This document shows positions 501-15,311 of a stretch of DNA of 24,729 nt, in pieces (within the stretch, counting starts at the first letter, position 1; each line of letters begins with the position of its first letter). This DNA is from Hominicoprocola fusiformis. GTDB lineage: Bacteria > Bacillota > Clostridia > Oscillospirales > Oscillospiraceae. Made by a program: the position numbers and the translations under genes. Below the pieces are notes generated by a model. The model searched no databases. It worked only from the letters and a program-made list of their open reading frames with translations, and was not told where the DNA came from. The stretch covers positions 1 to 24,729 of the forward strand of contig JBBNGO010000039.1 in the NCBI GenBank assembly GCA_040095065.1. The letters run 5' to 3'.

Positions 501-503
501 ACT

Positions 504-621: not shown

Positions 622-936
622 ATGGAGAAAAAGGAGCTGGGGCGCGAGGATGTGATCGAGGCGCTCAAGAAGATCGCGTTCGGACGGGTGAACCGGGGCG
701 TGGAGCTGACATATCTGAGCGAGCCGACGGCGGAGCTCATCCGAAAAATGGACTTGTCGGCGGTGGCGGAATTCAAGAGAAACGCCAACGGGACGGTGGA
801 GGTCAAGTTCGTCGACCGGGTGAAGGCGCTGAGCGCGCTTTACGAGATGCTGGGGGCGGGGGACGCGAACGAGGCGGCGGAGTTCTTGGAGGCGCTGGAG
901 CAGGCGGGAGAGGAGAGAGATGATTGGCGGCCGTGA
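622..936 (+). CDS. Small terminase-like protein (Terminase_2/P27-type C-terminal region only, 104 aa)
   Basis: Segment VIEALKKIAFGRV...VEVKFVDRVKALSALYEMLG resembles the post-HTH oligomerisation part of P27-type TerS (..ELAKIAF....KL.DKLKALELLGKHLG). An in-frame TGA at 592-594 with no alternative start before 622 rules out a longer N-terminus. RBS GGGGGGA at 611-617. Positioned directly before TerL. Confidence 0.65.
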   Translation: MEKKELGREDVIEALKKIAFGRVNRGVELTYLSEPTAELIRKMDLSAVAEFKRNANGTVEVKFVDRVKALSALYEMLGAGDANEAAEFLEALEQAGEERDDWRP

Positions 937-2186
937 AGCAGTTTTCCACCAAGCAGAAGACGGCGATGACCTGGTGGGCGAACCCCAAGTACAAAGAGTA
1001 CGACGCGATCATCTGCGACGGGGCGGTGCGAAGCGGGAAGACGCTGTCGATGGGGATGGGCTTTTTCCTGTGGGCGATGCGGCGCTTTAGCGGCGAGCAA
1101 TTTGCACTGTGCGGGAAGACGATCGTGTCGCTGCGGCGAAATGTGCTGCACGAGATCTTGCCGAAGGTGACGGCGCTGGGCTTTCACTGCGAGGAGAAGC
1201 GGAGCGAGAATTTAGTGATCGTGCGAAGCGGAGGGCGGGAGAACCGCTTTTACCTCTTCGGCGGATACGACGAGGGGAGCGCGGCGCTCATCCAGGGCGT
1301 GACGCTGGCGGGGGTGCTGTTCGACGAGGCGGCGCTGATGCCGCGGTCATTTGTGGAGCAGGCGAGCGCGCGATGCAGCATATCGGGCAGCAAGCTGTGG
1401 TTCAACTGCAACCCCGAGGGGCCAATGCACTGGTTCTACCGCGAGTGGATCCTGCGCGCGGAGGAGCGCGGGGCGCTGTATCTGCACTTTACGATGGACG
1501 ACAATCCGTCGCTCTCGCCGCGCATTCGGGCGCGGTACGAAAAGGCATACAGCGGGACATTTTACCGGCGGTTCATCCTGGGCGAGTGGACGGCGGCGAA
1601 GGGGCTCATCTATGACTTCTTTACGCCGCAGGAGTATTGCGCTCGTGTGCCGGAAAAGCCGTGGGAGCGGGCGAGGATCTCCATCGACTATGGGACGGTG
1701 AATCCGACGAGTTTTGGCCTGTGGGCGCTCAAGGACGGCGTGTGGTACCGGGCGAGGGAGTATTACTTCGATTCGCGCAGAGAGGGGCAGCAGAAGACAG
1801 ACGCGGAGTATGTGGCGGACCTTAAAAAGTTCGCAGCGGGGGAGACGGTGGAAAAGGTAATCGTCGACCCGTCGGCGGCGAGCTTTATCGAGGCGCTGCG
1901 GCGCGAGGGCTTCCCCGTGAGCAAGGCGGACAACGATGTGGCGGACGGCATCCGCGTGACGGCGAACCTATTGAAGCAGCGAAAGATCGTGATCTGCGAG
2001 GGCTGCGAGAGCTGCCTTGCCGAGATCGCGGCGTACTGCTGGGAGGATGGCGGAACGGGAAGAGACCGGCCGAAAAAGGAGAGAGATCACGCGATGGATG
2101 AGATGCGGTATTTTGCCGTGTCGATCGCGAAAAAGGAACGCGGAGGCGGCATTGCGATGCGCGCGGTGGAGCGCGCGGCGCGATGA
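924..2186 (+). CDS. Large terminase subunit (PBSX/XtmB-type)
   Basis: Walker A GAVRSGKT, Walker B VLFDEAA, and nuclease-domain acidic motifs ISIDYG, VIVDPSAASF and HAMDEMRY. The ORF track uses a TTG start at 924 (RBS GGAGAGGAGAG at 907-917); ATG at 966 is the alternative. Overlaps terS by 13 nt. Confidence 0.9.
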   Translation: MAAVKQFSTKQKTAMTWWANPKYKEYDAIICDGAVRSGKTLSMGMGFFLWAMRRFSGEQFALCGKTIVSLRRNVLHEILPKVTALGFHCEEKRSENLVIVRSGGRENRFYLFGGYDEGSAALIQGVTLAGVLFDEAALMPRSFVEQASARCSISGSKLWFNCNPEGPMHWFYREWILRAEERGALYLHFTMDDNPSLSPRIRARYEKAYSGTFYRRFILGEWTAAKGLIYDFFTPQEYCARVPEKPWERARISIDYGTVNPTSFGLWALKDGVWYRAREYYFDSRREGQQKTDAEYVADLKKFAAGETVEKVIVDPSAASFIEALRREGFPVSKADNDVADGIRVTANLLKQRKIVICEGCESCLAEIAAYCWEDGGTGRDRPKKERDHAMDEMRYFAVSIAKKERGGGIAMRAVERAAR

Positions 2187-2211
2187 ACAAAACGGAAAAG
2201 GAGAGAACAGG

Positions 2212-3378
2212 ATGAAAGTACCCTGGCAGAAGGAGAGAAGCACGGGCGGCGAGACCGCCGTGCAGCTGCGCGGCGGCGGACGCAGTACATTCGGACGGCT
2301 TGAGAGCTATGTGCCGCTGCTGGATGGGGAGACAGCGCTTTACCGCGAGGTGCGCGAGGCGGTGCCGGTGGTGGACGCGGCCATCTGCAAGCTGATCCGG
2401 CTGACGGGCGGCGTGCGCGTGGCATGCGGCAACGAGCGGGCGGAGCAGGGCTTGCAGCGCTTTTTGCGCGAGGTGCCGGTGGGCAGAGGGCAGAGGGGCA
2501 TCAACGCCTTTTTGGACTGTTACCTCGATTCGCTTTTGACCTGCGGGCGCGCGGTGGGCGAGATCGTACCGGACGCGGAGGGGCGCGAGATCGCGGCGGT
2601 GCTGTGCGCGGACGTTTCGCAGGTGGAGGTGCGCGAGGGGGACAATCCGCTCGAATTCTGCCTGTGCGGTGTGGATGGCGGCGGGCGCAGCGTGCCGCTC
2701 GAGTATCAGGACCTACTGCTCTTTACACCGCTCAACCCCGAAGCGGGGCACCCTTACGGCGTTTCGATGCTGCGCTCGATGCCGTACTTAACGGGGCTGC
2801 TGCTGAAAATTTACGACGCGATGGGAAAGAATTGGGATCGCTGCGGCAATGTGCGCTTCGCGGTGACGTATAGGCCGCAGGACGGCGAGCTCGACCGCGG
2901 GGCGGCACAGGAGCGCGCCGAGCAGATCGCCGAGGAATGGTCGCGGGCGATGCAGGAGGGCAGAAACGGCAGCGTGCGCGACTTTGTATCGGTGGGCGAT
3001 GTATCGATCAAGGCCATCGGCGCGGACAACCAGATCTTGGACAGCGAGACGCCGGTACGGCAGATCTTAGAGCAGCTGGTGGCGAAGACGGGGCTGCCGC
3101 CGTTTATGCTGGGGCTGAGCTGGTCGTCGACCGAGCGGATGAGCTCGCAGCAGGCGGATATGCTGACAAGCGAGATCACGGCGCTGCGGCGCACGCTCGA
3201 ACCGGTCATCGACCGCATCTGCACGCTGTGGCTTAGGATGCACGGCTACGGCTGCCGTGCGGTGGTGGACTGGGAGGACATCAACCTGCAGGATGAGGTG
3301 GAGGAGGCCAAAGCGGCACTCTACTTGCAGCAGGCGCGAAAGCTCAGGCAGGAAAATGATGAAGCGGAGGGGAAATGA
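2212..3378 (+). CDS. Portal protein (388 aa)
   Basis: Positioned after TerL, with the size of an HK97/XkdE-type portal. ATG at 2212 is preceded by AAAGGAGAG. The 2017 start in the ORF track overlaps terL and is rejected. Confidence 0.8.
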   Translation: MKVPWQKERSTGGETAVQLRGGGRSTFGRLESYVPLLDGETALYREVREAVPVVDAAICKLIRLTGGVRVACGNERAEQGLQRFLREVPVGRGQRGINAFLDCYLDSLLTCGRAVGEIVPDAEGREIAAVLCADVSQVEVREGDNPLEFCLCGVDGGGRSVPLEYQDLLLFTPLNPEAGHPYGVSMLRSMPYLTGLLLKIYDAMGKNWDRCGNVRFAVTYRPQDGELDRGAAQERAEQIAEEWSRAMQEGRNGSVRDFVSVGDVSIKAIGADNQILDSETPVRQILEQLVAKTGLPPFMLGLSWSSTERMSSQQADMLTSEITALRRTLEPVIDRICTLWLRMHGYGCRAVVDWEDINLQDEVEEAKAALYLQQARKLRQENDEAEGK

Positions 3379-4313
3379 GCATGGAAGTGAGAAAAGAGAG
3401 CAATGGGCTCAAAAACAGCATGGTGACGCGCGAGGAACTGGCAATCATCAATCAGTTCACGAAGCGCGCGCTCAAAGAGGACGAGGTCTACACCTTTGCC
3501 GTGCGGCTGTGCGACAACGAGGTGGACCGGGACGGCGAGCGCTTTCCGCGCGCGACGCTCGAAGAGCTCGCGGAGCTGTTTGTGGGCAAAAGCGGCATCT
3601 TTGACCACGAGTGGACGGCGAAGGGGCAGGCGGCGCGCATCTACCGCACGGAGATCGTGGAGGAAGAGGGCGTTTGCTCGCAGGGCGAGGGGCGCTGCTA
3701 TCTCAAGGGCTATGCGTATATGCTGCGCGGCGGCGAGAATGATGCGCTGATCGCGCAGATCGAGGGCGGTATCAAAAAGGAAGTGAGCGTGGGGTGCAGC
3801 GTGGAAAGGTGCGTGTGCTCCATCTGTGGTGAGGACATCAACACCTGCGCGCACAAAAAGGGCGAAGTGTACGGCGGCAAGGTGTGCTGCGCGGAGCTTG
3901 TGAACGCGCAGGACGCGTATGAGTGGAGCTTTGTAGCGGTGCCGGCGCAGCCGAGAGCGGGCGTTTTAAAGCGCTGCGGCGGAGAGGACGCGGGCACGCT
4001 CAAGACGTTCGTCAAGCGGCGCGGGTCGAGAGCGAACCAGAGGGAGCTTGAAAGCCTTGAAAAGCAGGCGGAGGTCGGTAAGCGCTACTTGAGTGAGCTG
4101 CGCGGCGAGGTGAAGCGGCTGATGCTCGTGTGCGAGCAGGAGGCGGATGGCGAGGCCATTGAAAAGCTCGCGGAAAAGCTCGACGAGAGCGAGCTCAAGG
4201 AGATGGAGAAGCTGTATCGCGGGAAGATGGCGAAAAAGCTGGGGCTGCGCACGCAGCTCACTTACGGCGAGAAGACGAAAGCGGCGGAGGACGAGAGCGA
4301 CTTTCGCGTGTGA
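3375..4313 (+). CDS. Prohead serine protease (S78-like) fused to a C-terminal coiled-coil scaffold-like domain
   Basis: GIFDHEW and IEGGIKKEVSVGCS resemble the His and Ser motifs of HK97-family prohead proteases. There is a Cys cluster, CSVERCVCSICGEDINTCAH..GKVCC. The K/E/L-rich C-terminal half is typical of scaffolds. ATGA overlap with the portal stop. Confidence 0.7.
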   Translation: MSMEVRKESNGLKNSMVTREELAIINQFTKRALKEDEVYTFAVRLCDNEVDRDGERFPRATLEELAELFVGKSGIFDHEWTAKGQAARIYRTEIVEEEGVCSQGEGRCYLKGYAYMLRGGENDALIAQIEGGIKKEVSVGCSVERCVCSICGEDINTCAHKKGEVYGGKVCCAELVNAQDAYEWSFVAVPAQPRAGVLKRCGGEDAGTLKTFVKRRGSRANQRELESLEKQAEVGKRYLSELRGEVKRLMLVCEQEADGEAIEKLAEKLDESELKEMEKLYRGKMAKKLGLRTQLTYGEKTKAAEDESDFRV

Positions 4314-4371
4314 AAAGGAACAAAAAGCAGCGGCGCTTTTTGGATAGAACAACAGATCAAGGAGGAACGGT

Positions 4372-4725
4372 ATGAGCATTTCTTATGAGGGCATCGGCGA
4401 GTGGTGTGCAACGTTTGTTTGCGGCGCGGTCAGCGAGGGCGACATTGTGAAGGTGAGCGCGAACGGCACGGTGGGCAAGTGCACGGCGGGCGACGGCTTC
4501 TGCGGCGTGGTGCGCGCCGTCGCGCATGACGGCAAGGCCTGCACGGTGCAGCTCGGCGGCCTTGCGAGCGTGAAGTACAGCGGCACGGCGCCTGCGGTAG
4601 GCTTTAGCGAGCTGGTGGCGGACGGCTCGGGCGGCGTGAGCAAGCCGGGCGAGAACCAGAACGGCAGCAGCTATCTTGTGCTGAGCGTGGACAGCGCGGC
4701 GAACAAGGCTGTCATCAAGCTTTAA
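4372..4725 (+). CDS. Small Gly/Val-rich beta protein. Possible DUF2190-like head decoration or cement protein.
   Basis: 117 aa with RBS AAGGAGGA, located between the scaffold and the major capsid gene. The pattern of G..V..G repeats recalls DUF2190. Confidence 0.45.
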   Translation: MSISYEGIGEWCATFVCGAVSEGDIVKVSANGTVGKCTAGDGFCGVVRAVAHDGKACTVQLGGLASVKYSGTAPAVGFSELVADGSGGVSKPGENQNGSSYLVLSVDSAANKAVIKL

Positions 4726-4740
4726 GGAGGAGAAGGACAA

Positions 4741-5772
4741 ATGGCTTATCAGTATGAAAATGTGAAGCTCGAAAAGGGCATGTACGGTCAAAGCGGCAAG
4801 AGCTTTCTGAAGGTGCTCGAATCGCTCGACCCGAGCGAGAACTACAAGGGCACGGCGCTCGAGGGACTCGACGCCTTCCAGCGCCAGCTCAAGCGCTTTG
4901 ATATCCACGTTAAGGGCGCGGGCAGCGACATGGTGGAAAAGTTTTTCCACACGAGCGAATCGTCCGTGCTGTTCCCGGAGTTCGTCTCCCGCGTGGTGCG
5001 CCAGGGCATGGAAAGCGACATCCTGCCCGACATCACTGCGACCGTGACGAATTTTGACGGCATGGACTACCGCTCTATCGCGTCCGTTCCGACGGACGAC
5101 GACAAGGAGCTCAAGCGCGTGGAGGAGGGCGCGGGCATCCCGACGACCAGCATCCGCACGCAGGAAAACCTTGTGAAGCTCCACAAGCGCGGCAGAATGC
5201 TGGTCGCGTCCTATGAGGCGATCCGCTTCCAGCGACTGGACCTCTTCTCTGTGACGCTGCGCCAGATCGGCGCGTACATCGCGCGCATGCACTTAAAGGA
5301 CGCCATCGACGTTTTGATGAACGGCGACGGCAACAACAATGCGGCAACAAGCTATACCATCGGCGATGACGGCATCGGCGGCACGAAGGGCACGCTGAGC
5401 TATGACGCGCTGCTGGGCTTCTGGTCGCAGTTTGACCCCTATACGATGAACACGATGCTGATGGGCAGCGACATGATGCTCGCGATGCTCAAGCTCTCGG
5501 AGTTCCAGAACCCGCTGACGGGCCTCAACTTCCAGGGCACGGGTACGCTCGCCACCCCGCTGGGTGCGAAGCTCCTGCGCACGAGCGCAATGCCCGCGGG
5601 CAAGATCATCGGCCTTGATAAGAACTATGCGCTCGAGCGCATCTGTGGCAGCGAGGTGCTGGTCGAGTACGACAAGCTCATCGACCGCCAGCTGGAGCGC
5701 GCGGCCATCACGAGCATTTCCGGCTTTGCAAAGCCGTATCAGGAGGCCTCGAAGGTGCTGTCCTTACAGTAA
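4741..5772 (+). CDS. Major capsid protein (HK97-fold, XkdG-like)
   Basis: 343 aa with a strong RBS (AAGGAGGAGAAGG) in the canonical position after protease and scaffold. Confidence 0.8.
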   Translation: MAYQYENVKLEKGMYGQSGKSFLKVLESLDPSENYKGTALEGLDAFQRQLKRFDIHVKGAGSDMVEKFFHTSESSVLFPEFVSRVVRQGMESDILPDITATVTNFDGMDYRSIASVPTDDDKELKRVEEGAGIPTTSIRTQENLVKLHKRGRMLVASYEAIRFQRLDLFSVTLRQIGAYIARMHLKDAIDVLMNGDGNNNAATSYTIGDDGIGGTKGTLSYDALLGFWSQFDPYTMNTMLMGSDMMLAMLKLSEFQNPLTGLNFQGTGTLATPLGAKLLRTSAMPAGKIIGLDKNYALERICGSEVLVEYDKLIDRQLERAAITSISGFAKPYQEASKVLSLQ

Positions 5773-5792
5773 AAAGTAAGGAGGAAGAGCGA

Positions 5793-6173
5793 ATGGCGGA
5801 GAGCATGAGCGAGCAGATCTTTTCGATCGCGTGTGCGCTGAGCAAGGCGGACGAGAGCGAGAAGAGCATGCTCCGAATGATCTGCACGGCGCAGGAGGAG
5901 AGCCTTGTGCGCGCGCTGAAAGAGGGCGTCGCCAAGGAGGACTGCGAGAGCGCGTTTATCTGCGCGGCGTCGTGGTTGGCGGCGGCCGCGCTGGAGAGCG
6001 CGAGAGCGGGCGGGGAGGAGTTCTCCTCCCTGCGCGCGGGAGATCTCACGGTGACGAAACGTTCGTCCGATGAGGGGAGCAAAAGGCTGTCGCTGCTGCG
6101 TGAGCAGGCGTGGGCGCTGATGCGTCCGTATACGACGGACGGCGGGTTCTGCTTCCGCGGGGTGGAAGCATGA
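5793..6173 (+). CDS. Head-tail connector or adaptor protein (XkdH position)
   Basis: 126 aa with RBS AAGGAGGAAG, first of three small coupled ORFs between capsid and sheath. Confidence 0.55.
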   Translation: MAESMSEQIFSIACALSKADESEKSMLRMICTAQEESLVRALKEGVAKEDCESAFICAASWLAAAALESARAGGEEFSSLRAGDLTVTKRSSDEGSKRLSLLREQAWALMRPYTTDGGFCFRGVEA

Positions 6174-6493
6174 ATCGGGCACTGAGTGAGGCGTTCGCGC
6201 GCTATGGCATGAGCGTTTTGGTGCTGCACGGCGGAGAGACGGCGGAGACGAAGGCGTTTTTGCAGCTTGTGAAGAAGGAGAACGGCGAGGAGCCGTTCTC
6301 TGTGACGGCGCTGGGAGCGGTCGACGAGCAGTGTTGGCGGTATCTGGGCCCGGCGGACGTTGCGGTCGCAATGGGCGACTTTGTGCAGTGCGGAGAGAAG
6401 CGGTATGTCGTGCGCGCGGCGGGGCCGTTTTACGTGGGCGAGGAGATCGCCTACTACTGGGCGATGCTGCATCCGAAGGAGGAAGAGGCATGA
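6170..6493 (+). CDS. Head closure or connector protein (XkdI position)
   Basis: ATGA overlap with the previous gene at 6170-6173. The 6110 start in the ORF track is rejected. Confidence 0.55.
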   Translation: MNRALSEAFARYGMSVLVLHGGETAETKAFLQLVKKENGEEPFSVTALGAVDEQCWRYLGPADVAVAMGDFVQCGEKRYVVRAAGPFYVGEEIAYYWAMLHPKEEEA

Positions 6494-6999
6494 CGGCGGT
6501 CGGACAGGTGAAGCGCGCGGTGGCCGCGGCGATCGAGGCGGCGGGCTGCGCGGCGATCGAGAGTTACAGCGAAGAACAGCTCAAGCGGTATGCGACCGCG
6601 GTGGCGGCGGTCGGCACGAAGGAGACGGTGATCGAGGAGAGCGGCGCGATCGAATATCTGGGAGAAAAGGTCGACGAGGCGACGCAGGAGACGGTATCTG
6701 TCTACGGGAGAAAAATGCTGCTGACGCTGCTGACCGAGGTGTATGCGCCGAGGACGATGGGTGCGGCGGGCTGCGAGGAAGCGGCGGAGACGATCACACA
6801 GGCGATGATGACGGCGCTGCCGGAGGGGCTGAAGCTCAGAACATTGCAGTGGGGCAAGACCGGCTGGGACAAGACGACGGGCATGTTCCGGCTGGACGCG
6901 AGCGCGAAATATGCGGCGTACTTTGTCGCGGAGGCGGCGGAGGATGGGACGGTGTTTACCGATTTTGTATTGAAAGGCACGGTGAAAGAACGTGAATAG
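6490..6999 (+). CDS. Tail completion or terminator-type connector protein (XkdJ position)
   Basis: ATGA overlap at 6490-6493. 169 aa, directly before the sheath gene. Confidence 0.5.
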   Translation: MTAVGQVKRAVAAAIEAAGCAAIESYSEEQLKRYATAVAAVGTKETVIEESGAIEYLGEKVDEATQETVSVYGRKMLLTLLTEVYAPRTMGAAGCEEAAETITQAMMTALPEGLKLRTLQWGKTGWDKTTGMFRLDASAKYAAYFVAEAAEDGTVFTDFVLKGTVKERE

Positions 7000-8065
7000 T
7001 ACGATCCATGAGCGGCCGGGCGTGTATTCGTCCTACGACGCATCGAGCGTGGTGAGCGCGAGCGCTGCGGCGAAGACGATCGGCGCGGCAGCGGTGGCGA
7101 CGAAGGGGACGGCCAATAAGGTGGAGCTCATCACCTCGTATGAAGAGGGAAAGAGTGTATTCGGGGAGGATGCGAGCGGCGTGTATGGCATGAGCACGCT
7201 GCTCAAATTCCTCTTCGCCAACGGCGCGGGTGCAGTGAAGGCTGTGGCCGTGGGCAAGGACGAGAGTGAAGAGAAGGACTACGCGAGCGCGTTTGCGGCG
7301 CTCTCTGATGAGGAAGATGTCGGCGTGATGGTGTGCGACAGCGCGGCGCAGAGCGTGCATCTGCTCCTCAAAACGGCGGCAGAGGATGCCTCGGCGGCGA
7401 GACGCGAGCGCATCGCGGTCATCGGTGGTTCGGAAGAGACGGTCGCGCAGATGGTGAACCGCGCGAAGGCTGTCAACAGCGAGCGCGTAGTGCTGGTGGG
7501 ACCGGATATCGCATCGGACGACGGCGGTACGATGAGCGCGGTGTTTGCCGCGGCGGCGGTGGCGGCGGTGATCGCGGGAAACACCGACCCGTCCGTGCCT
7601 ATCAACGGCGCGGAGCTGACGCTTTTCGGCGCGGCGGGCAAGAGACTGAGTGACAATGAGATCGACCAGCTGGTGCGCGGCGGCGTGACGCCGATCGAGA
7701 CGGTGGGCGGCGTTTCCTCGCCGGTGCGAGGTATCACGACAAGGACTTCGAGCGGCGGGGCGGCGGACACGACGTGGCGCGAGCTGACGACCATTTTGAT
7801 CGTGGATGAGGTCATCCCGACGATCCGCAGCGCGCTGCGTACGCGCTTTGCCAGAAGCAAGAACACCGCGCAGAGCCGCGGGGCCATCCGCTCGCAGGTG
7901 GTGCTGGAGCTCGAGGGGATGAAGAGCCGCGAGATCGTGGACAGCTACGGCGAGGTGCTGGTGAGTGCGCTCAAGAGCGACCCGACGGTGTGCCTGGTGG
8001 AATTCAGCTTTACGGTGGCGCACGGGCTGAACCGCATCTATCTGACGGCGCACATCACGGTGTAA
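6992..8065 (+). CDS. Contractile tail sheath protein (XkdK-like, compact at 357 aa)
   Basis: The N-terminal HERPGVY motif is typical of sheath proteins, and the gene is followed by a tube gene. GTG start overlaps the upstream gene by 8 nt. Confidence 0.8.
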   Translation: MNSTIHERPGVYSSYDASSVVSASAAAKTIGAAAVATKGTANKVELITSYEEGKSVFGEDASGVYGMSTLLKFLFANGAGAVKAVAVGKDESEEKDYASAFAALSDEEDVGVMVCDSAAQSVHLLLKTAAEDASAARRERIAVIGGSEETVAQMVNRAKAVNSERVVLVGPDIASDDGGTMSAVFAAAAVAAVIAGNTDPSVPINGAELTLFGAAGKRLSDNEIDQLVRGGVTPIETVGGVSSPVRGITTRTSSGGAADTTWRELTTILIVDEVIPTIRSALRTRFARSKNTAQSRGAIRSQVVLELEGMKSREIVDSYGEVLVSALKSDPTVCLVEFSFTVAHGLNRIYLTAHITV

Positions 8066-8076
8066 GGAGGAAAAAT

Positions 8077-8466
8077 ATGGCGAATACGGTATTGCCGCTG
8101 AGCAGCGACATCTATCTCGAAGTCGACGGCAAAAAGGTGGCGGTGGTGCAGAGCTACACGACGAGAGCGACGCGCACGAGCCGCGAGATCGAGGCCTTTG
8201 GCGAAAACGAGCCGGTGGCGACGATCGCGGGCGCGAACAAGTACACGCTGGAGTTGAGCCGCCTGTACGCGACGGATGAGGCCATCAGCGACGGCATCAA
8301 CTTCTATGATCTGAACGACTTTTCGCTTGTGATCTGCAAGCCGGACAAGCGCATCATCTACTCGCAGTGCCGCTGGAGCAGCATTGAAGAGGCGGGCAAG
8401 CTCGGCGACCCGGCGGCGGAGAAGGTGACGATCATCGCGCGTAAGCGCATGGAGATCGCAAGCTGA
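8077..8466 (+). CDS. Tail tube protein (XkdM-like)
   Basis: 129 aa with a perfect RBS, AAGGAGG at 8064-8070, positioned after the sheath gene. Confidence 0.75.
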   Translation: MANTVLPLSSDIYLEVDGKKVAVVQSYTTRATRTSREIEAFGENEPVATIAGANKYTLELSRLYATDEAISDGINFYDLNDFSLVICKPDKRIIYSQCRWSSIEEAGKLGDPAAEKVTIIARKRMEIAS

Positions 8467-8849
8467 TGGACGAGCTTCTGCTGAACTTTTTGGGGCGCGA
8501 GCGGGAGAAGACGGTGCGCATCGGGGAGAGAACGTGCGCGATGCGGCTGCTTTCGGCCCGCGAGACGCTCTCGCTGCGGCGCGAGATCGCGCAGCTTGAC
8601 TGCGCCGACGAAGAAGAGCGTGCGTTGCGCGCGAACGCGGCGCTGCTCAAAAGAAGCCTGACGGAGGGCGGAGAGGCGGCCTTTGCAAGCGCGGAGGACG
8701 TTGAAAATGCACTGAGCGTCGGCGAGATCAACGAGCTGGTGCGGTGCTACGCGCTGCTTGACGGGGCGGAGAACCCGTCGAGCGAGGACGGGCGCGAGAA
8801 GGTGGAAGCGCTAAAAAAAGCATGGAGCACGCGCCCTACGAACGGCTGA
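8466..8849 (+). CDS. Tail assembly chaperone, short (G-like, XkdN position)
   Basis: 127 aa with a TGATG junction to the tube gene. The slippery site lies near its 3' end. Confidence 0.75.
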   Translation: MDELLLNFLGREREKTVRIGERTCAMRLLSARETLSLRREIAQLDCADEEERALRANAALLKRSLTEGGEAAFASAEDVENALSVGEINELVRCYALLDGAENPSSEDGREKVEALKKAWSTRPTNG

Positions 8850-9115
8850 AATGGCGCGTGCTCCGATATGCCGGCGCGCTGCCGAGCGAAAAGCGCGCGC
8901 AGGAGATGACGGACGCGGACTACCTCTATTGCCTTGTGCACGAGATGCTCGACCGCGAGGAGGCGATGGAGCGGCTGTGCCCCGAGTGCAGGACGCGCGC
9001 GGAGGAGGCACGGTGCAGCATTTGCGGCGCAAAGCTCGGCGAAACCGCAGGCGGCGGCAACGCGAGCTTTGATATGGCGCGCTTTATCCGCATGAAGGAG
9101 GGGCGAAAACCTTGA
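8466..9115 (+). CDS. Tail assembly chaperone, -1 frameshift fusion (GT-like). The frame changes at 8813-8819.
   Basis: The zero frame reads CTA AAA AAA GCA. A slip on A_AAA_AAA continues in the -1 frame as AGC ATG GAG... through ORF 8822..9115. That frame is open for at least 10 codons (back to 8786) before the site. Confidence 0.65.
8813..8864 (+). promoter_or_regulatory. Programmed -1 ribosomal frameshift signal (slippery heptamer plus stimulatory hairpin)
   Basis: A7 run at 8813-8819 in the A_AAA_AAA register. After a 4-nt spacer comes a perfect 12-bp GC-rich stem, GGAGCACGCGCC (8824-8835) paired with GGCGCGTGCTCC (8853-8864), with a 17-nt loop. Confidence 0.7.
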
Positions 9116-9663
9116 ATTACATCGAATGGGCGCTGCAAAGAGGCGCAGAGCTGTGGCGCGCGCGGGAAGAGGCGCTGAAAAAGCGCCTCTCCCTTGTGCC
9201 GGAGGGGACGGCGCAGAAAAAGGCGGCGGAGGCGCAGCTTTCGGAAGAGGAAGCCGCGGCGCAGGATGCGGAGATGAGCGGCGGCGCGGAAACTGTGGCA
9301 GAAGCAGCGGATGATCCGGTGGAGACGGCGGCGGTGCGGCTTGGGCAAAAGCTCGGGCTGGGTGCGACGCAAGAAGATGATGGCTCGGAGAGGGAGACGA
9401 CGTTTTCTGCCGATCTGGCGAGCACTGCGGCGGCGAACGCTGCGCTTCTGCGCGCGAGGGAGGCCGAGAGCGCGGACAATGCGTCCGACTGGATAAGAAA
9501 GCTCCTGAGCGCGGACGGCCGCGACGGGGCGAGCGCGGCGGCAGCGCGAGGGAAAAATGACTTTTCACTCGCGCAGGAGCAGGAGGTGCGCGAGACGGAG
9601 TCGTTTTCGCTGAGCTTAGAGCGCGACGCACGCCGATACGACGGCGGATTTTTATTTTACTGA
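9112..9663 (+). CDS. Protein in the tape-measure position (183 aa, Ala/Glu-rich, low complexity). Putative minimal tape measure.
   Basis: TTG start coupled to the upstream stop (TTGA at 9112-9115) with RBS GAAGGAGGGG. It lies between the chaperone pair and the LysM/XkdP-like gene, which is the XkdO slot. Confidence 0.45.
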   Translation: MNYIEWALQRGAELWRAREEALKKRLSLVPEGTAQKKAAEAQLSEEEAAAQDAEMSGGAETVAEAADDPVETAAVRLGQKLGLGATQEDDGSERETTFSADLASTAAANAALLRAREAESADNASDWIRKLLSADGRDGASAAAARGKNDFSLAQEQEVRETESFSLSLERDARRYDGGFLFY

Positions 9664-9678
9664 GAAAGGGGCGGGAGG

Positions 9679-10242
9679 ATGAACCTTGCACCGATGCGAT
9701 ACAAGGATTATGTCTGGCCGCACAACCCGGAGACCTACACCATCTCGTTCAAGCGGCAGGTGGCAGTGGCGAAGGTGCCGTTCGGGCGCTACGGGATGCA
9801 GGATCTCGGAATGAGCTACCGCGTGATGGAGGGCGAAGGCGTTTTTGCGGGGAAGGGCGCCTACGACGAGTTCAAAAAGCTGGCATCGGTCTTCTATCAG
9901 GGCGGGCCGGGGCTGCTGATCCATCCGGTGTGGCAGGCGTCGCAGGCGTACTTTGTGTTGCTGGAACTGGCGCAGCAGCCGCTTGAAAACTACGTGCGCT
10001 ACCGCTTTGCCTTCTGGGAGACGAGCCCACTCGATACGTCGCTCATCCGCGTGAGCGGCGGGAGCGGCAATGCGGGCACGGGGACGAAAACGGCGAGCTC
10101 GTACTACACGGTCAAGCGCGGCGACACGCTGTGGGGCATCGCGAACACGTATGGCGTGACGCTGACGGCGCTTTTGAACGTGAATCCGCAGATCAAAAAT
10201 CCCAACAGGATCGCCGTGGGAGAGCGGGTGACGCTGCCGTGA
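9679..10242 (+). CDS. LysM-domain tail or baseplate protein (XkdP-like)
   Basis: The C-terminal segment YYTVKRGDTLWGIANTYGVTLTALLNVNPQIKNPNRIAVGERVTLP is a canonical LysM motif. Confidence 0.85.
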   Translation: MNLAPMRYKDYVWPHNPETYTISFKRQVAVAKVPFGRYGMQDLGMSYRVMEGEGVFAGKGAYDEFKKLASVFYQGGPGLLIHPVWQASQAYFVLLELAQQPLENYVRYRFAFWETSPLDTSLIRVSGGSGNAGTGTKTASSYYTVKRGDTLWGIANTYGVTLTALLNVNPQIKNPNRIAVGERVTLP

Positions 10243-11180
10243 TGAAGGGGTATCTGACGACGTGCGACGGTGCGCAGTTTGAGCTGCCGACGCTGCTGAA
10301 GTGGGAATTTTCCTACACGGGAAGCGTGCCGTGCGACAGCTTTACGCTCAAGTGCGCGTATGAGCCCGCGATGGCGGAGGTGCTGCGGCGGGCGGTGCGC
10401 TTCACGGCGAGAGAGGACGGCACGGTCGAATTTGCGGGCGTTGTGGACGAGTGCGGCGTGACATGCGATGAAAAGGGCTTGCAGCTTGAGGTGAGCGGAC
10501 GCGGCATGGCGGCGCTGCTGCTCGACAATGAGGCAGAGAGCGTGAGCTATCAGTGGGCGACGATGGAGGAGATCCTCAAAAACCATGTGACGCCGTACGG
10601 CATCGTGTGCACGGGCTATGACGCGGTGACGGCTGCGGCACGGTACCGCGTGGCGAACGGGTCGAGCCAGTGGAAGGCGCTGAACGATTTTGCAGCGCTG
10701 CACGGAGGGATCGCACCGTATTTCGACAAGACGGGCGCGCTGGAGGTGAAGAAAAACCGCAAAGCCGCGCGCGTGAGCATTGACGCGAAAACGCCGGTGA
10801 CGGCGCTTTCCTACTGCGATAAGCGCTACGGCGTGATCGCCGAGGCACTGGTGGTGGACAGCAAGGCGGGCGTGAAGCAGAGCGTGAAAAACGAGGCGTT
10901 CTGTGCTCGCGGCGGCACGAGCAGGCGCGTATTTTACGTGCCGGCGCGCAGCGGCACGCAGGCAATGCGCTACACGGGGGAGTATCAGATCGCAAAGTCG
11001 AAGGAGGGCGCGGAGACGCTGCGCGTGACGATCGCGGGGCGGTTCACCGCCGCGCCGGGGGATATCGCGGCGGTGAGCGGGACGAAGATCGGCATCGCAG
11101 GCCATTTCCGCGTGATCGAGTGCGTGAGGCGCTTTGGCGAGAGCGGAGAGGCGTGTGAAGTGACGATGCAGAGGGAGTGA
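10242..11180 (+). CDS. Baseplate hub or late-control-D-like protein (XkdQ-like)
   Basis: 312 aa with a TGATG junction at 10240-10244. Size and synteny match XkdQ. The 10131 start in the ORF track is rejected. Confidence 0.6.
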   Translation: MKGYLTTCDGAQFELPTLLKWEFSYTGSVPCDSFTLKCAYEPAMAEVLRRAVRFTAREDGTVEFAGVVDECGVTCDEKGLQLEVSGRGMAALLLDNEAESVSYQWATMEEILKNHVTPYGIVCTGYDAVTAAARYRVANGSSQWKALNDFAALHGGIAPYFDKTGALEVKKNRKAARVSIDAKTPVTALSYCDKRYGVIAEALVVDSKAGVKQSVKNEAFCARGGTSRRVFYVPARSGTQAMRYTGEYQIAKSKEGAETLRVTIAGRFTAAPGDIAAVSGTKIGIAGHFRVIECVRRFGESGEACEVTMQRE

Positions 11181-11186
11181 GAGACG

Positions 11187-11567
11187 ATGTGGCTATCGAG
11201 AAAGCTAAGCCAGTATGAGATGCAGGACGTGGCCTCGGCACAGGACGGAACGGTGACGGTCGAGGGCGGTGAGCTGGCGGTATTCAGCAGCGGGGAAAAG
11301 CGCGAGGTGAAGACCGCCGCGCCCGGCGGCTATGAGTGGCAGCCGAAAAAGGGCGAGGATGTGCTGGTGGTGCGCGGCGGGACCTTTGGCGAGGAGGCCT
11401 ACGCCGTGGGCGCGGTGGGGCAGAGCGCGGACGACCTGGCACCCGGCGAGGTGCGCATTCGCTCCGCCGCAGCGGGGACGGAGATCGTGCTGCGCAACAA
11501 CGGGCGCATCGACATCAACGGGCTCCTTTTCATCAACGGGATGCCGTATCTGGGAATGGGAGGCTGA
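11187..11567 (+). CDS. Baseplate spike or plug protein (XkdR/gpV-like)
   Basis: 126 aa in the syntenic position. Confidence 0.5.
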   Translation: MWLSRKLSQYEMQDVASAQDGTVTVEGGELAVFSSGEKREVKTAAPGGYEWQPKKGEDVLVVRGGTFGEEAYAVGAVGQSADDLAPGEVRIRSAAAGTEIVLRNNGRIDINGLLFINGMPYLGMGG

Positions 11568-11569
11568 GG

Positions 11570-11923
11570 ATGGAGCTGAAGATCAAAGACCGCGATTATG
11601 TGGCCGACGGCGCGGGCGGGCTCGTGTGCGTGAGCGGCTGGGACGAGCTGCTCGAACGCGTGCTCTTTAAGCTGAGTGTGCGGCGCGGAAGCTTTGCGCT
11701 CGCACCGGAGCTTGGCAGCAAGCTGCACCTTTTATGGCGGGAAAAGGGCGAGAGCCGCGCGACGGCGGCAAAGCAATACGTGGCCGAGGCACTGGCGGAT
11801 GAAAAGGGTCTGAGCGTGACGGGCATGGAGCTTGCGGAAAAGAATGGATTTTTGGAGCTGCGCGTGCTGCTGCGCTATGAGAACGAAACGGGCGAGGCGG
11901 TCGTGACGATAGGGGGAGAGTGA
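11570..11923 (+). CDS. Baseplate wedge protein (XkdS/gp25/gpW-like)
   Basis: 117 aa, ATG at 11570 with RBS GGGAGG, directly before the baseplate J gene. Confidence 0.55.
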   Translation: MELKIKDRDYVADGAGGLVCVSGWDELLERVLFKLSVRRGSFALAPELGSKLHLLWREKGESRATAAKQYVAEALADEKGLSVTGMELAEKNGFLELRVLLRYENETGEAVVTIGGE

Positions 11924-11926
11924 AGA

Positions 11927-12994
11927 ATGGAAGAGCTGAACGCGATCTACGAGCGGATGCGCGCGATCTTTGCCGAGGAGGCGGGCTTTGTGCCGAACGA
12001 CGGCTGCGACGCGATGGTGCGCCTCTATGCGCTGGCGAGCGAGGTACAGTCGCTTCTGGCGCAGGCGGACTGGGTGCTGGATCAGAGCTTTCCGCAGACG
12101 GCGGTGGGGCAGTATCTCGACTATCACGCCGAGACGCGGGCGCTGACGCGCCTTCCCGCGGCGAAGGCGGCGGGTGTGCTGCGCTTTTCCGCGCCGTCGG
12201 CGGCGGTGACGGATTATGAGATCGACGCGGGAAGTGTGGCGATGACGAGCGGCGGCGTGCGCTTTGAGACGACGGAGAAGGCGACGCTTGCAAAGGGCGA
12301 AACGTATGTGGATGTGCCGGCGAGCGCCGTGGAGGCGGGGGCGAGCGGCAACGCCATCGCGGGCGCGATCCATCTGATGTCCGTGTATCCGGTGGGCATC
12401 ACGCAGTGCACAAATCCTGAGGCGTTTTCCGGCGGCAGCGACGAGGAGAGCGACGAAAAGCTGCGCGAGCGCGTACTAGCAAGCTACAAGCGCCTGCCGA
12501 ACGGTGCGAACGCGGCGTTTTACGAGCAGGAGGCGATGAGCTTTCCGAACGTGGCGGCGGCGAAAGCGGTCGGCCGCGCCCGCGGCATCGGCACGGTGGA
12601 TGTGTATGTTTCGACGCACGCGGGCGCGCCGGATGAGAAGCTGCTCGGCGAGATCGAGGCGGTCTTGCAGAAAAAGCGCGAGATCGCGGTGGATGTGGAG
12701 GTCAAGGCGCCGACAGAGAAGACCGTCAACATGAGCGCGGAGCTGACGGCGGAGCAGGGCTGGACGATACAGGAGATCACCGATGCGGCGACGGCGGCGC
12801 TGCAGGCGTACTTTACCGGTGAACGGCTGGGCGAGGCGGTGTATACGGCGAAGCTCGCGAGCATCCTCTACGGTGTGGAGGGCGTGAAGAACTGTCACCT
12901 GCTCACGCCGGACGAGGATGTGAGCGTGAGCGCGACGGAGCTACCGGTGCTCGGCACGGTGACGATCACGGAGATCGGGGCGGGTGAGGCATGA
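11927..12994 (+). CDS. Baseplate J-like protein (XkdT-like)
   Basis: 355 aa. Size and position are typical of the Baseplate_J family. Confidence 0.7.
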   Translation: MEELNAIYERMRAIFAEEAGFVPNDGCDAMVRLYALASEVQSLLAQADWVLDQSFPQTAVGQYLDYHAETRALTRLPAAKAAGVLRFSAPSAAVTDYEIDAGSVAMTSGGVRFETTEKATLAKGETYVDVPASAVEAGASGNAIAGAIHLMSVYPVGITQCTNPEAFSGGSDEESDEKLRERVLASYKRLPNGANAAFYEQEAMSFPNVAAAKAVGRARGIGTVDVYVSTHAGAPDEKLLGEIEAVLQKKREIAVDVEVKAPTEKTVNMSAELTAEQGWTIQEITDAATAALQAYFTGERLGEAVYTAKLASILYGVEGVKNCHLLTPDEDVSVSATELPVLGTVTITEIGAGEA

Positions 12995-13569
12995 CATATT
13001 ATGACTATCTCTGCCGCCTTTTGGAGCCGATGCGCGTTTATCGTACCGAGCGCGGCACGCTGAGCGGCGGAGAGCTGTACGCAGCGGGCGCGGCGCTGGA
13101 TGAAGCGGACGGCGCGATGGAATACGCCGAGCAGGAGGGCCTTTTGCAGACGGCGGAGGGCGAGGGCCTTGCAAGGCGGGAGAAGCTCTTTTCCCGCTGC
13201 CCGGTCAGCGTTTCGACTGCGCTGCGGCGCGAGGCCATCGCGGCGCTCGCGCGCATCAACGCCGACAGCTTCACGCTGGATGCGATCAACTCGACGCTCA
13301 GCGGCTGCGGCATCAAGGCGCTGGCGGAGGAGACGGAGAAAAAAGGAACGGTCAAGGTCTGGTTCCCGAACACCGTGGGCGTGCCGGATGAGTTTTCGCA
13401 GGTGGAGAGCATCATCCTCGATATCATCCCGTGCCATTTGCTGGTGGAGTTCTACTTCCGGTATCTGACGTGGCTCGAGTGCGAGAGAGTGGGATTCACG
13501 TGGCAGAGTGTGGAGGACGCGCACCACACGTGGGAGAGCTTTGAAAAGGCGGTGCCGGAGGAAGAATGA
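12991..13569 (+). CDS. Baseplate or tail protein (XkdU/gpI-like)
   Basis: 192 aa, ATGA-coupled to the J-like gene in the syntenic position. Confidence 0.5.
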   Translation: MTYYDYLCRLLEPMRVYRTERGTLSGGELYAAGAALDEADGAMEYAEQEGLLQTAEGEGLARREKLFSRCPVSVSTALRREAIAALARINADSFTLDAINSTLSGCGIKALAEETEKKGTVKVWFPNTVGVPDEFSQVESIILDIIPCHLLVEFYFRYLTWLECERVGFTWQSVEDAHHTWESFEKAVPEEE

Positions 13570-13862
13570 CGGAACAGGAGATCTCGGTCAAGCTGACGGA
13601 GACCGAGCAGCGCGCCAAGTCGAACACGCACCGCATCGAAAAGCTGGAACAGCAGCAGAAGGACCTGAATAAGCTGGTAACGGCAGTGGAGGTGCTCGCC
13701 TCGCGCGAAAAGGGCGTGGAGACGGACGTCAAGGAAATCAAGGCGGACGTGAAGACCATCACGCAGAAGGGCGGAAAGCGCTGGGATGCGATGATCGACC
13801 GCGTGCTGTACGTGCTCATCGGGGCGGCAATCTCCCTGCTGATGACAGGGGGGAGCTTATGA
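13566..13862 (+). CDS. XhlA-like membrane protein of the lysis module
   Basis: N-terminal coiled coil (EQRAKSNTHRIEKLEQQQKDLNKL) plus one C-terminal transmembrane helix (VLYVLIGAAISLLMTGG). ATGA-coupled. Confidence 0.6.
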   Translation: MTEQEISVKLTETEQRAKSNTHRIEKLEQQQKDLNKLVTAVEVLASREKGVETDVKEIKADVKTITQKGGKRWDAMIDRVLYVLIGAAISLLMTGGSL

Positions 13863-14131
13863 AAAGGAAACGCACGAGCTTTTCCAAACTGTTGCTGCTG
13901 CTCGAAAGCGCGATCGTGCTCTATACGACGTATCAGGGCTTCGGGATCGCGAAGCTCGCGATCGAACTGGGCTTTATGGGCACGCTTCCGTGGATTGCGA
14001 CGATGGTGACGGCGGCGTGGGGAGCTTACGGCACGAGCGCCGCGTGCTACTATGCCAAGGCAAAGGCGGAAAATACGGCGGGCGGCGTGACGTATGAAAC
14101 GGTGTGCCGCGGGCAGGACTGCGAGGGGTGA
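13859..14131 (+). CDS. Putative holin or lysis membrane protein (two predicted TM helices)
   Basis: Basic N-terminus MKRKRTS, with hydrophobic segments LLLLLESAIVLYTTY and LPWIATMVTAAWGAYG. ATGA-coupled. Confidence 0.5.
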   Translation: MKRKRTSFSKLLLLLESAIVLYTTYQGFGIAKLAIELGFMGTLPWIATMVTAAWGAYGTSAACYYAKAKAENTAGGVTYETVCRGQDCEG

Positions 14132-14137
14132 GAGAGC

Positions 14138-14329
14138 ATGGAGCTTTTGAAAAAGAGACTGGCGAATCTTTTGAGCGTGAAGAGCATCGTGACGCTGTGC
14201 CTGACGATCACGTTCTGTGTGCTGACGGTGCAGGCAAAGGTGACGCAGGAGTTTAACACGGCGTATCTCATGGTGATCGCGTTTTATTTCGGCACGCAGA
14301 ACGGCAAAAACGCGCAGGAGGAAACGTAA
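14138..14329 (+). CDS. Putative holin (63 aa, two TM helices, charged C-terminus)
   Basis: Hydrophobic segments IVTLCLTITFCVLTV and YLMVIAFYFG with the tail NGKNAQEET. Directly abuts the endolysin start (TAAATG). Confidence 0.6.
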   Translation: MELLKKRLANLLSVKSIVTLCLTITFCVLTVQAKVTQEFNTAYLMVIAFYFGTQNGKNAQEET

Positions 14330-14980
14330 ATGCGCCACAGCAGGAGCATCAGCGACCTGCGCGCGGACGTGGCGGAGAATTGCCGGACGCTGCTTATGCT
14401 CGCTGAGCGCGAGGGGTTGAGCGTTCTGGTGACGGAGACGGTGCGCGATGCGGAGTATCAGCGGATGCTCGCCGAGAAGGGCTACGCGGCCAAAGGAGCG
14501 GTGACGCCGTCGTTCCACGCCGAGCATGCAGGATTGGCCTTTGACATTTGCAAAAATGAGGTGGGGCACGAGTATGACGATCCCGCGTTTTTTGCGCGGA
14601 TGGGGGAGATCGGAAAGCGAGTCGGATTTTCCTGGGGAGGAGACTGGGGGAGCTTTCCCGACCGGCCGCATTTTCAGTGGGACGCGGGCGGAGTGTACAC
14701 GAGCGCGATGATCCGCGCGAAGCGCTATCCGCCGCCCATGCCGCGCTATGAGGAGGAAGAGATGACGCAGCAGCAGTTTGACGCGATGATGGAAAACTAC
14801 CTGAAAAGACTGGCGCAGCAGACGCCGGCGTCCTGGAGCGCGGAGGCGCGCGCCTGGGCGGAGAAAAACGGCCTGATCGCGGGTGATGAGGCGGGGAACA
14901 AACAGTACCGCAGCTTTTTGACGCGCGAGCAGATGGCCGTGCTGATGCAGCGCTACGACGCGATGCAGCGAGGCAAATGA
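14330..14980 (+). CDS. Endolysin: peptidase M15 (VanY/L-Ala-D-Glu peptidase-type) with a C-terminal SLH-like wall-binding segment
   Basis: Zn-ligand pattern SFHAEHAGLAFD ... DRPHFQW. The C-terminal WSAEARAWAEKNGLIAGDEAGNKQYRSFLTREQMAVLMQR resembles one SLH repeat. Confidence 0.8.
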   Translation: MRHSRSISDLRADVAENCRTLLMLAEREGLSVLVTETVRDAEYQRMLAEKGYAAKGAVTPSFHAEHAGLAFDICKNEVGHEYDDPAFFARMGEIGKRVGFSWGGDWGSFPDRPHFQWDAGGVYTSAMIRAKRYPPPMPRYEEEEMTQQQFDAMMENYLKRLAQQTPASWSAEARAWAEKNGLIAGDEAGNKQYRSFLTREQMAVLMQRYDAMQRGK

Positions 14981-14997
14981 CAGAATGGCAAATGAAA

Positions 14998-15029
14998 GCG
15001 CCGGAGGGGAGCCCCTCCGGTGCTTTTTT
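14998..15029 (+). terminator. Rho-independent terminator ending the phage-like cluster
   Basis: GCGCCGGAGGGG-AG-CCCCTCCGGTGC hairpin followed by TTTTTT (15024-15029), 18 nt after the endolysin stop. Confidence 0.8.
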
Positions 15030-15047
15030 GCGCTAATGAGCTGGAAA

Positions 15048-15067
15048 CTTGCAAGAATTCTTGCAAG
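15048..15067. promoter_or_regulatory. Perfect 20-bp palindrome CTTGCAAGAATTCTTGCAAG. Candidate regulator binding site upstream of the gct promoter.
   Basis: The sequence equals its own reverse complement and contains two copies of the 8-bp palindrome CTTGCAAG. It sits about 105 bp upstream of the -35 element. Confidence 0.35.
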
Positions 15068-15170
15068 ATCTGGAGATTTTGGAGAAGAAGACAAAAATGA
15101 CTACACGGAAACGACAAAAAGCGAGAACAAAATTTGTTCAGTTTTTTTTCACTTTCCATGCGGGTTTTCA

Positions 15171-15199
15171 TTGATTTTGCGAGGAAGTTCCTCTATAAT
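15171..15199 (+). promoter_or_regulatory. Sigma-A type promoter of the hydroxyglutarate operon
   Basis: TTGATT (15171-15176), a 17-nt spacer, then TATAAT (15194-15199), in an AT-rich region. It leaves a ~105-nt leader before gctA. Confidence 0.7.
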
Positions 15200-15311
15200 T
15201 TACACTGAAGCCTGTATGAGCATCTTTCAGCGGATTTTTGACGGAATCCATGCAAGCGGAAAGAGCTCTTTGGCAATAAAAATGTTTATCAAAATCAGGG
15301 AGGGTTTTATC

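Follow-up and report, generated by a model that had tools for sequence, protein, structure and literature searches.

Can the tail of a contractile phage be measured by a protein of only 183 amino acids (aa)? This question is raised by a stretch of 24,729 nucleotides (nt) from Hominicoprocola fusiformis (GenBank assembly GCA_040095065.1, contig JBBNGO010000039.1, positions 1 to 24,729 of the forward strand; the whole stretch is referred to below as the window), in which a phage-derived gene cluster carries an open reading frame (ORF) of this length in the slot of a tape measure gene. A preliminary description of the window had left two readings of this ORF, namely a genuinely short ruler that would give a tail of ~27 nm, and a tape measure that has suffered an internal deletion and belongs to a defective tail. 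Having compared the gene, the tail module and the entire cluster with their relatives, we consider it fairly probable that the 183-aa protein is a genuine miniature tape measure of a Mu-like contractile tail, encoded in a domesticated, vertically inherited head–tail(–lysis) cluster of the Oscillospiraceae. The features on which the argument draws are listed in Table 1.

The 183-aa gene lies between the G/GT frameshift chaperone genes and the genes for the tube initiator and the baseplate hub, which is the position by which tape measure genes are recognized. The order of the tail module is, gene for gene, that of the Mu-like phage SuMu, which has a 787-aa tape measure in this slot, and SuMu gp45–gp48 are collinear with the rest of the baseplate. 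When the sheath was compared with 50,697 GenBank phage records, the nearest true phages were the Mu-like SuMu and 3927AP2, with 34% identity in the C-terminal half; among the phages in this collection, the tail module thus appears to be closer to Mu than to PBSX. The tube protein matched no Pfam family, and the top 50 Foldseek matches of its AlphaFold2 (AF2) model in the PDB were nearly all Hcp or tail-tube proteins. Its identity was 97% in a comparison of species in which the other proteins of the cluster were 64–97% identical, most of them 73–91%. The assignment of the gene to the tape measure slot, which the preliminary description had made, is therefore upheld by the frameshifting chaperone genes upstream, the LysM initiator downstream and the collinearity with SuMu.

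We asked how long the protein in this slot is in other species. The genes neighbouring the tube gene were surveyed by means of a search with a tube-protein alignment, which retrieved 247 species-level genomes (the tube protein is encoded in at least this number), and the best 80 of the 247 loci, of at least 64% tube identity, were examined. These 80 loci cover Hominicoprocola, Oscillibacter, Dysosmobacter, Lawsonibacter, Intestinimonas, Pseudoflavonifractor, Flavonifractor, Evtepia and others, and the whole cluster was syntenic across them. In the 70 species-level genomes in which the region was assembled, representing at least eight named genera, the ORF just before the LysM gene encoded 136–270 aa, with a median of 180 and an interquartile range (IQR) of 168–198. 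The distance from the stop codon of the tube gene to the start codon of the LysM gene was 552–1473 bp in these 70 loci, and a gap of at most 1473 bp leaves no space for a long tape measure. Homologues spanning the whole 183-aa query were 135–191 aa long. When 1.84 billion representative proteins were searched with a profile, 53 matches were obtained, of which those covering the whole profile had 156–223 aa, and no long relative of the protein was found in this search. The loci compared are separated by synonymous divergences (dS) of 0.2–0.7, and their cluster proteins are down to ~40% identical. As judged from these sequence comparisons, the short length of the slot protein is ancestral and not the product of a recent deletion. 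An alignment of orthologous clusters had been proposed in the preliminary description as the way to separate a conserved short length from a strain-specific deletion, and its outcome is in favour of the former: the short length is conserved, and none of the relatives surveyed has a long gene in the slot or the space for one. Given also that the cluster is under purifying selection (see below), the internally deleted ruler of a defective tail did not hold up.

Both ends of the 183-aa protein, of which the N-terminus reads MNYIEWALQRGAELWR and the C-terminus ...ERDARRYDGGFLFY, are conserved. At the N-terminus, the AF2 model contains a helix from residue 3 to residue 28, with predicted local distance difference test (pLDDT) values of 93–94 in the residue blocks from 1 to 20 and of 74 in the block 21–30, and a motif of the type xDY[IL]ExxL is retained in distant genera; this helix may represent the head-proximal end of the ruler. 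At the C-terminus, the core D[AS]RR[YF]D was found in 70 of 70 loci, usually followed by GGFxLY, with GGF varying in some loci, and the motif was also present in every distant full-length profile match inspected. When the ratio of nonsynonymous to synonymous substitution rates (dN/dS) was computed by region over 12 orthologues, residues 146–183 gave 0.28. In Mu and diffocin, the ordered part of the tape measure is confined to its last 17–23 residues, within hub and spike, and by analogy the motif may serve as a plug that binds the hub, the spike and the tube initiator. No C-terminal motif common to this protein and the SuMu tape measure was seen, as the SuMu motif is different and no homology is visible.

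Between these ends, the spacer contains two small conserved islands, RLGxKLG (residues 76–84) and W127, together with many indels between species; it is predicted to be helical, with low confidence. Its sequence is barely alignable between genera while the length stays near 180 aa, and such a stable length despite sequence drift would be expected of a ruler or spacer. The AF2 model of the whole protein has five helices over most of the chain and no globular domain, with a mean pLDDT of 56 and a predicted template modelling score (pTM) of 0.19, helix 3–28 being the only confident part; it is weakly suggestive of an extended, mostly helical, non-globular chain as in tape measures. The protein has an isoelectric point of 4.5, with 36 acidic versus 22 basic residues, an Ala share of 20.8% versus 11.7% cluster-wide and an entropy minimum in its middle, and both composition and entropy agree with the acidic, low-complexity protein with an Ala/Glu/Asp-rich middle and distinct termini of the preliminary description.

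Because long ORFs are common by chance in GC-rich DNA, the reality of the plus-strand frame needed separate evidence. The G+C fractions at the first, second and third codon positions of the ORF (0.70/0.51/0.72, in DNA of 61% GC) fit the plus-strand frame. Homologues numbered 218 in a set of 5.8 billion proteins, and one 90%-identity cluster of these homologues comprises 4062 member sequences. Together with a dN/dS below 1 and the in-frame deletion allele described below, the codon-position GC and the homologues establish that ORF 9112–9663 is a real gene and not a chance ORF. A 314-aa ORF on the minus strand (8747–9691) was rejected as a gene on account of its inverse GC-position pattern and the conserved plus-strand frame. 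The sequence TTGA at 9112–9115 joins the TTG start of the 183-aa gene to the TGA of the upstream ORF, and 10 nt lie between the end of the GGAGG core (9101) and the start codon. This overlap fits coupling by termination and reinitiation. The gene noted in the preliminary description, with its TTGA overlap and strong ribosome-binding site, is present and real and appears to be translationally coupled. A second –1 frameshift joining T to the 183-aa ORF was also considered; the two frames do stand in a –1 relation, but no slippery heptamer occurs at 9100–9112.

The chaperone genes upstream retain the frameshift arrangement over a wide range. The window and ~35 loci from several genera have a slippery heptamer A_AAA_AAA in register with the G frame, after which almost every one of these loci continues with a –1 extension of 96–99 aa ending in FDxxR[FY]xR[ML]KEG. 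In the window, this extension has 98 aa; its dN/dS is 0.12, and it contains a zinc-ribbon-like motif CxxC...CxxC (CPECRTRAEEARCSICG, at ~8978–9025), for which the Pfam double-zinc-ribbon matches were weak and below threshold. Some lineages have a single chaperone ORF of ~100 aa without a frameshift site, and the three inspected (3/3) have no CxxC and keep FDxxR[FY]. In the clade of Oscillibacter valericigenes (L025–L032 in our numbering of the loci), there are no separate G and T genes. One ORF of 173–257 aa directly follows the tube gene, with the FDxxR[FY] chaperone motif internal and the tape measure C-terminal motif at the end, in one frame; it is apparently a fusion of chaperone and ruler. 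Four of seven fused ORFs are 173–183 aa long, and the remaining three span 175–257 aa.

How a protein of this size might act can be considered from three characterized systems. In Mu, a trimeric tape measure (gp42) of ~690 aa accompanies a tail of 30 rings and is ordered only in its last 17 residues (674–690), which lie in the hub/spike, and gp43 is a hexameric tube initiator with a LysM module (PMC11915804). Diffocin has an 817-aa tape measure and 32 layers, and residues 795–817 were modelled de novo (PMC10996793). In RcGTA, a gene transfer agent (GTA), a tape measure of 216 aa with a long N-terminal helix forms a trimer in the tube lumen, in a tail of 49 nm with five tube discs (PMC7296036). 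Mu and diffocin give a calibration of 23–26 residues per ring, from which we predict ~7–8 sheath rings and a tail of ~27–30 nm for 183 aa, and ~5–12 rings for the family range of 136–270 aa. The predicted tail is far shorter than that of Mu or diffocin. The short ruler and the ~27-nm tail suggested in the preliminary description are favoured by the comparative data (70 species; 23–26 residues per ring).

By analogy with these systems, we propose that a trimer of the 183-aa protein would be held by the G and GT chaperones, while its C-terminal ~15–20 residues would lock into the hub, the spike and the LysM initiator and thereby seal the distal end of the channel. Tube rings, and then sheath rings, would polymerize around the largely helical Ala/Glu spacer irrespective of its sequence, and growth would end at the conserved N-terminal helix, where the terminator would bind. 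That the protein functions as a ruler, that the tail has the predicted length and that the cluster produces particles and packages DNA is what we infer from the genes and from these analogies.

Several observations weigh against a miniature tape measure. The 183-aa gene is the least constrained of the cluster (dN/dS of 0.41, which is still below 1, against the 64%-identical orthologue in L001). The protein matches no Pfam, PHROGs or NCBIfam family, tape measure families included, and its profile retrieved no PDB chain at E < 0.5; a match to the Hia adhesin among PDB sequences (E of 0.57) was discarded as spurious. The cluster has no gene for a receptor-binding fibre, and either any fibre is encoded elsewhere or the baseplate itself must bind the target. 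We know of no characterized precedent for a sheath of 7–8 rings, and the predicted sheath would have to contract usefully at this size. Furthermore, the length of the slot protein varies twofold between species, where a strict ruler might vary less, alleles of 146 and 183 aa coexist in one species, and in L025 only ~60 residues follow the chaperone motif.

The length variation within species deserves a closer description. Same-species alleles of 136–149 aa occur, and in-frame deletion alleles of 37–49 residues were found within sequences that are otherwise ~97% identical. In the 146-aa allele of L085, the missing 111-bp segment is flanked in the window by GCGGCGGC repeats at 9427–9434 and 9535–9542, and the cluster of L085 is otherwise intact. 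A deletion between such repeats indicates that indels arise readily in the spacer through its Ala-codon repeats, whereas the frame and the C-terminal motif are maintained by selection.

The twofold length range and the deletion alleles keep viable an alternative explanation, in which the 183-aa protein is no more than a hub plug or initiator of tube assembly, a tape measure relic with a C-terminal anchor. The length of the tail would then be set otherwise or loosely, for instance by a chaperone, or by the stoichiometry or the kinetics with which tube, sheath and terminator assemble. Consistent with such a role, the C-terminal motif is the sole strictly conserved part of the protein, the middle is nearly neutral (dN/dS of 0.69), 37–49 residues can be lost in frame, as in the 146-aa allele of an otherwise intact cluster, L025 manages with its ~60 aa after the chaperone motif, and known tape measures are not similar to the protein in sequence. 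However, the length remains near 180 aa (IQR 168–198) over at least eight named genera despite the drift of the sequence, and the same holds for the four of seven fused ORFs that have 173–183 aa; the N-terminal helix is conserved as well; and the G/GT frameshift chaperone, of which the known role is the handling of the tape measure, is retained. To our knowledge, phage-type contractile tails with a G/GT pair use a ruler. A protein confined to plugging the hub therefore seems unlikely to us, and we retain the miniature tape measure as the preferred explanation.

The preferred explanation also places the protein in a domesticated element, and the evidence for this comes from the cluster as a whole. 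Its 24 genes, all of whose ORFs (24/24) were compared with one or more family libraries, are arranged in the order terS, terL, portal, protease/scaffold, a 117-aa protein, major capsid, three neck proteins, sheath, tube and G/GT, then the candidate mini tape measure, tube initiator, hub, a 126-aa protein, gp46-like, Baseplate_J and gp48-like, and at the 3΄ end three small membrane proteins and an M15 lysin. Family scans found no integrase, transposase, repressor, replication, lysogeny or tail-fibre gene in the cluster, and host metabolic genes flank it. In L001 and other species, too, the 24 genes are bordered by a HAD hydrolase gene on one side and the glutaconate CoA-transferase/gcd operon on the other, and this site is shared by L001–L032, from Hominicoprocola to O. 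valericigenes, although the cluster proteins are 45–85% identical. The dN/dS values of all 24 genes were 0.05–0.41. In five loci inspected, from four other genera and O. valericigenes (L026, L049, L054, L058 and L072), no fibre gene followed the gp48-like gene (0/5), and host genes stood directly 3΄ of it in three of the five.

Searches of phage collections agreed with this picture. The tube family of the cluster occurred in no complete phage among the 50,697 GenBank phage records or in IMG/VR, where the scan returned 13 short fragments only. A tblastn search of the phage records with the 183-aa, tube and sheath proteins returned remote Mu-like sheath matches and, from metagenomes, only two fragments of this element, both without annotation. 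One of the fragments, MT835769.1 (L100; 'UNVERIFIED: Bacteriophage sp.', from human faeces), was rejected as a phage, since it matches positions 1–11018 of the window at 97% and runs into the host HAD hydrolase gene. The other, MT837832.1, which bears the same label and also comes from human faeces, matches the sheath, the tube and the C-terminal end of the slot protein. These hallmarks suggest that the cluster is a domesticated, vertically inherited element of the GTA or PBSX type. An ordinary temperate prophage resembling Mu or PBSX was rejected, as neither in nor beside the cluster are there integrase or transposase, repressor, replication or fibre genes, and the site is fixed. Since replication, integration, lysogeny and fibre genes are all missing and the site is fixed, the mini-ruler may be one part of a general miniaturization like that of RcGTA.

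The same missing integrase, replication, lysogeny and fibre genes could instead be taken as signs of decay, in which case the cluster would be a defective prophage without a functional tail and the 183-aa ORF what is left of a tape measure after an internal deletion; the slot protein is indeed far below the 787 aa of SuMu, and GCG-rich repeats promote deletions. However, none of the 24 genes is disrupted and each is under purifying selection, the architecture and the short slot gene are common to more than 70 species of many genera, the frameshift site is conserved and the in-frame C-terminal motif is always present, and a decaying prophage would not be expected at one chromosomal site across genera. 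We consider decay very improbable.

It is equally improbable that a long tape measure is encoded elsewhere, at a second locus or in a resident prophage, with the 183-aa protein as an accessory: known GTAs such as RcGTA do have part of their structural genes at other loci, the cluster here lacks fibre genes and our analysis spans 24.7 kb of the genome, but the 183-aa gene occupies the tape measure slot and is apparently coupled in translation to the chaperone, the tape measure of RcGTA itself stays within the main cluster, no ORF of the window resembles a long tape measure, and a foreign ruler would have to fit the hub, whereas the C-terminal motif of the hub-binding type occurred only in short proteins among the 1.84 billion representatives.

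Table 1. Positions in the window of the features discussed in the text
Feature	Position	Strand	Description or basis
Phage-derived cluster	622..14980	+	24 genes, ~14.4 kb; Pfam and PHROGs scans
Tail sheath	6992..8065	+	357 aa (minimal size); Pfam Phage_sheath_1, Phage_sheath_1C; phrog_279 1e-47
Tail tube	8077..8466	+	129 aa; phrog_27038 4e-61; AF2 pLDDT 73
Tail assembly chaperone G	8466..8849	+	127 aa; directly after tube gene; holds frameshift site; kept across genera
Slippery heptamer A_AAA_AAA (–1)	8813..8819	+	In register with G frame
T extension of GT product	8819..9115	+	–1 frame; free-standing ORF 8822–9115; ends NASFDMARFIRMKEG
Shine–Dalgarno sequence GGAGGGG of 183-aa gene	9097..9103	+	Read from sequence
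Candidate mini tape measure gene	9112..9663	+	183 aa; TTG start overlapping upstream TGA
N-terminal amphipathic helix, residues 1–30	9112..9201	+	MNYIEWALQRGAELWR...; conserved; dN/dS 0.36
Ala/Glu/Asp/Gly-rich low-complexity spacer, residues 31–145	9202..9546	+	28% Ala; lowest entropy; dN/dS 0.69
Segment absent from 146-aa same-species allele	9433..9543	+	111 bp (37 codons); alignment with L085
C-terminal motif, residues 170–183	9619..9660	+	ERDARRYDGGFLFY; conserved core D[AS]RR[YF]D
Tube initiator, Mu gp43-like	9679..10242	+	187 aa; Pfam DNA_circ_N 9e-7, LysM 5e-15
Baseplate hub, Mu gp44/gpD-like	10242..11180	+	312 aa; phrog_177 2e-29; Pfam Gp44-like second domain weak
Remaining simple baseplate	11187..13569	+	126 aa (gp45 spike slot), gp46/gp25-like 117 aa, Baseplate_J 355 aa, gp48-like 192 aa

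Comparison with known systems clarifies what is shared and what is not. With Mu and SuMu, the cluster has in common the identical order from the sheath to gp48, and the Pfam families DNA_circ_N with LysM, Gp44-like, GP46, Baseplate_J and Gp48 were detected here; in contrast, the Mu-type tape measure has ~690–787 aa versus 183, the initiator 451 versus 187 and the sheath 469 versus 357. Unlike the Mu type, the cluster has no fibre, transposition or lysogeny genes. The defective, phage-like and GTA-like element PBSX of Bacillus subtilis (tail proteins XkdK–XkdU), which we compared by its description, is likewise a chromosomally fixed cluster for a head, a contractile tail and lysis in a host belonging to the Bacillota; in it, too, a LysM protein (XkdP) follows the tape measure (XkdO), lysis genes follow the baseplate genes and a replication module is lacking. 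However, PBSX also encodes fibres (XkdV and others) and regulators of its own. Its tape measure XkdO has ~1300 aa, and its tail is ~200 nm long.

RcGTA resembles the cluster in having a mini-ruler within a vertically inherited head–tail cluster of ~15 kb without replication or integration genes. It differs in its non-contractile, siphovirus-like tail, where a sheath and a Mu-type baseplate are encoded here, and in its alphaproteobacterial as opposed to clostridial host; GTA activity is proven for RcGTA and is a possibility for the present cluster. Sequence similarity between the RcGTA tape measure and the 183-aa protein was not detected. FpGTA of Faecalibacterium prausnitzii is the only characterized gut GTA. 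It is podovirus-like, being encoded by a 10.5-kb operon of ten ORFs with no visible tail, sheath, tube or tape measure (PMC12946183). Like the cluster in the window, FpGTA is a candidate GTA from gut Clostridia, and within its genus it is near-ubiquitous and has a fixed place in the chromosome (PMC12946183); it differs from this cluster in its gene set. The TerS protein of FpGTA has no evident DNA-binding domain, and a truncated TerS is called typical of GTAs, with reference to earlier GTA work (PMC12946183). In the window, TerS (622–936, 104 aa) aligns only to positions 58–130 of the 141-position Terminase_2 profile. We found no description of the cluster or of a mini tape measure of this kind in the literature.

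The window matches H. fusiformis CLA-AA-H269 at 97% identity. Additional features were noted at the 3΄ end of the cluster and in the host DNA on either side. Ahead of the M15 lysin, positions 13566–14329 encode a 98-aa protein that combines a coiled coil with a transmembrane helix at its C-terminus, and membrane proteins of 90 and 63 aa. The cassette resembles a PBSX-style xhlA/holin arrangement, but the identity of the 98-aa protein as XhlA was not confirmed by Pfam. Only in the clade of Hominicoprocola and Oscillibacter does this lysis cassette accompany the cluster. Upstream, at 455–500 and thus ~120 nt before terS, a strong GC-rich hairpin is followed by a T run (GGGAGGGGTATCTC...GAGATACCCCTCCCTTTTTT), which is probably the terminator of the transcript of the upstream HAD hydrolase gene. 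No Rfam family was found in the window at gathering thresholds. Downstream, the 474-aa ORF at 14985–16409 is over-extended at its 5΄ end, as the CoA-transferase domain and the conserved homologues start near 15300. From there to 24729, the window carries what appears to be a host operon for fermenting glutamate via the 2-hydroxyglutarate route. Its first CoA-transferase was confirmed by Pfam, and the remaining ORFs we take to be glutaconate CoA-transferase A/B, glutaconyl-CoA decarboxylase alpha, the dehydratase activator and subunits, a biotin carrier and membrane subunits.

Domesticated phages resembling GTAs or PBSX are known as a kind; what would be new here is a miniaturized ruler in the contractile tail of one of them. 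GTA-like packaging has been reported in the Oscillospiraceae (Onthomonas and Pelethomonas) by two studies of 2026 with no responsible gene cluster assigned (PMC12946183; bioRxiv 10.64898/2026.07.08.737213). More tentatively, and with clearly less confidence than we place in the ruler itself, we speculate that the cluster is the head–tail locus of an unrecognized GTA found throughout the Oscillospiraceae, which underlies this packaging in gut viromes and has the shortest contractile tail known (~5–12 rings), set by a ruler of 136–270 aa whose spacer evolves by slippage at GCG repeats. The cluster is, in any case, a concrete candidate for the unassigned packaging, and its carriers include cultured Hominicoprocola, Oscillibacter, Intestinimonas, Lawsonibacter and Pseudoflavonifractor. 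If the 183-aa protein is a ruler, a contractile tail of ~7–8 rings would probe the lower limit of sheath length at which firing is possible, and the natural series of alleles and orthologues from 136 to 270 aa is offered for ruler studies. If true, this would be a second, independent miniaturization of a tape measure in the course of phage domestication, the first being that of RcGTA, and now in a contractile tail.

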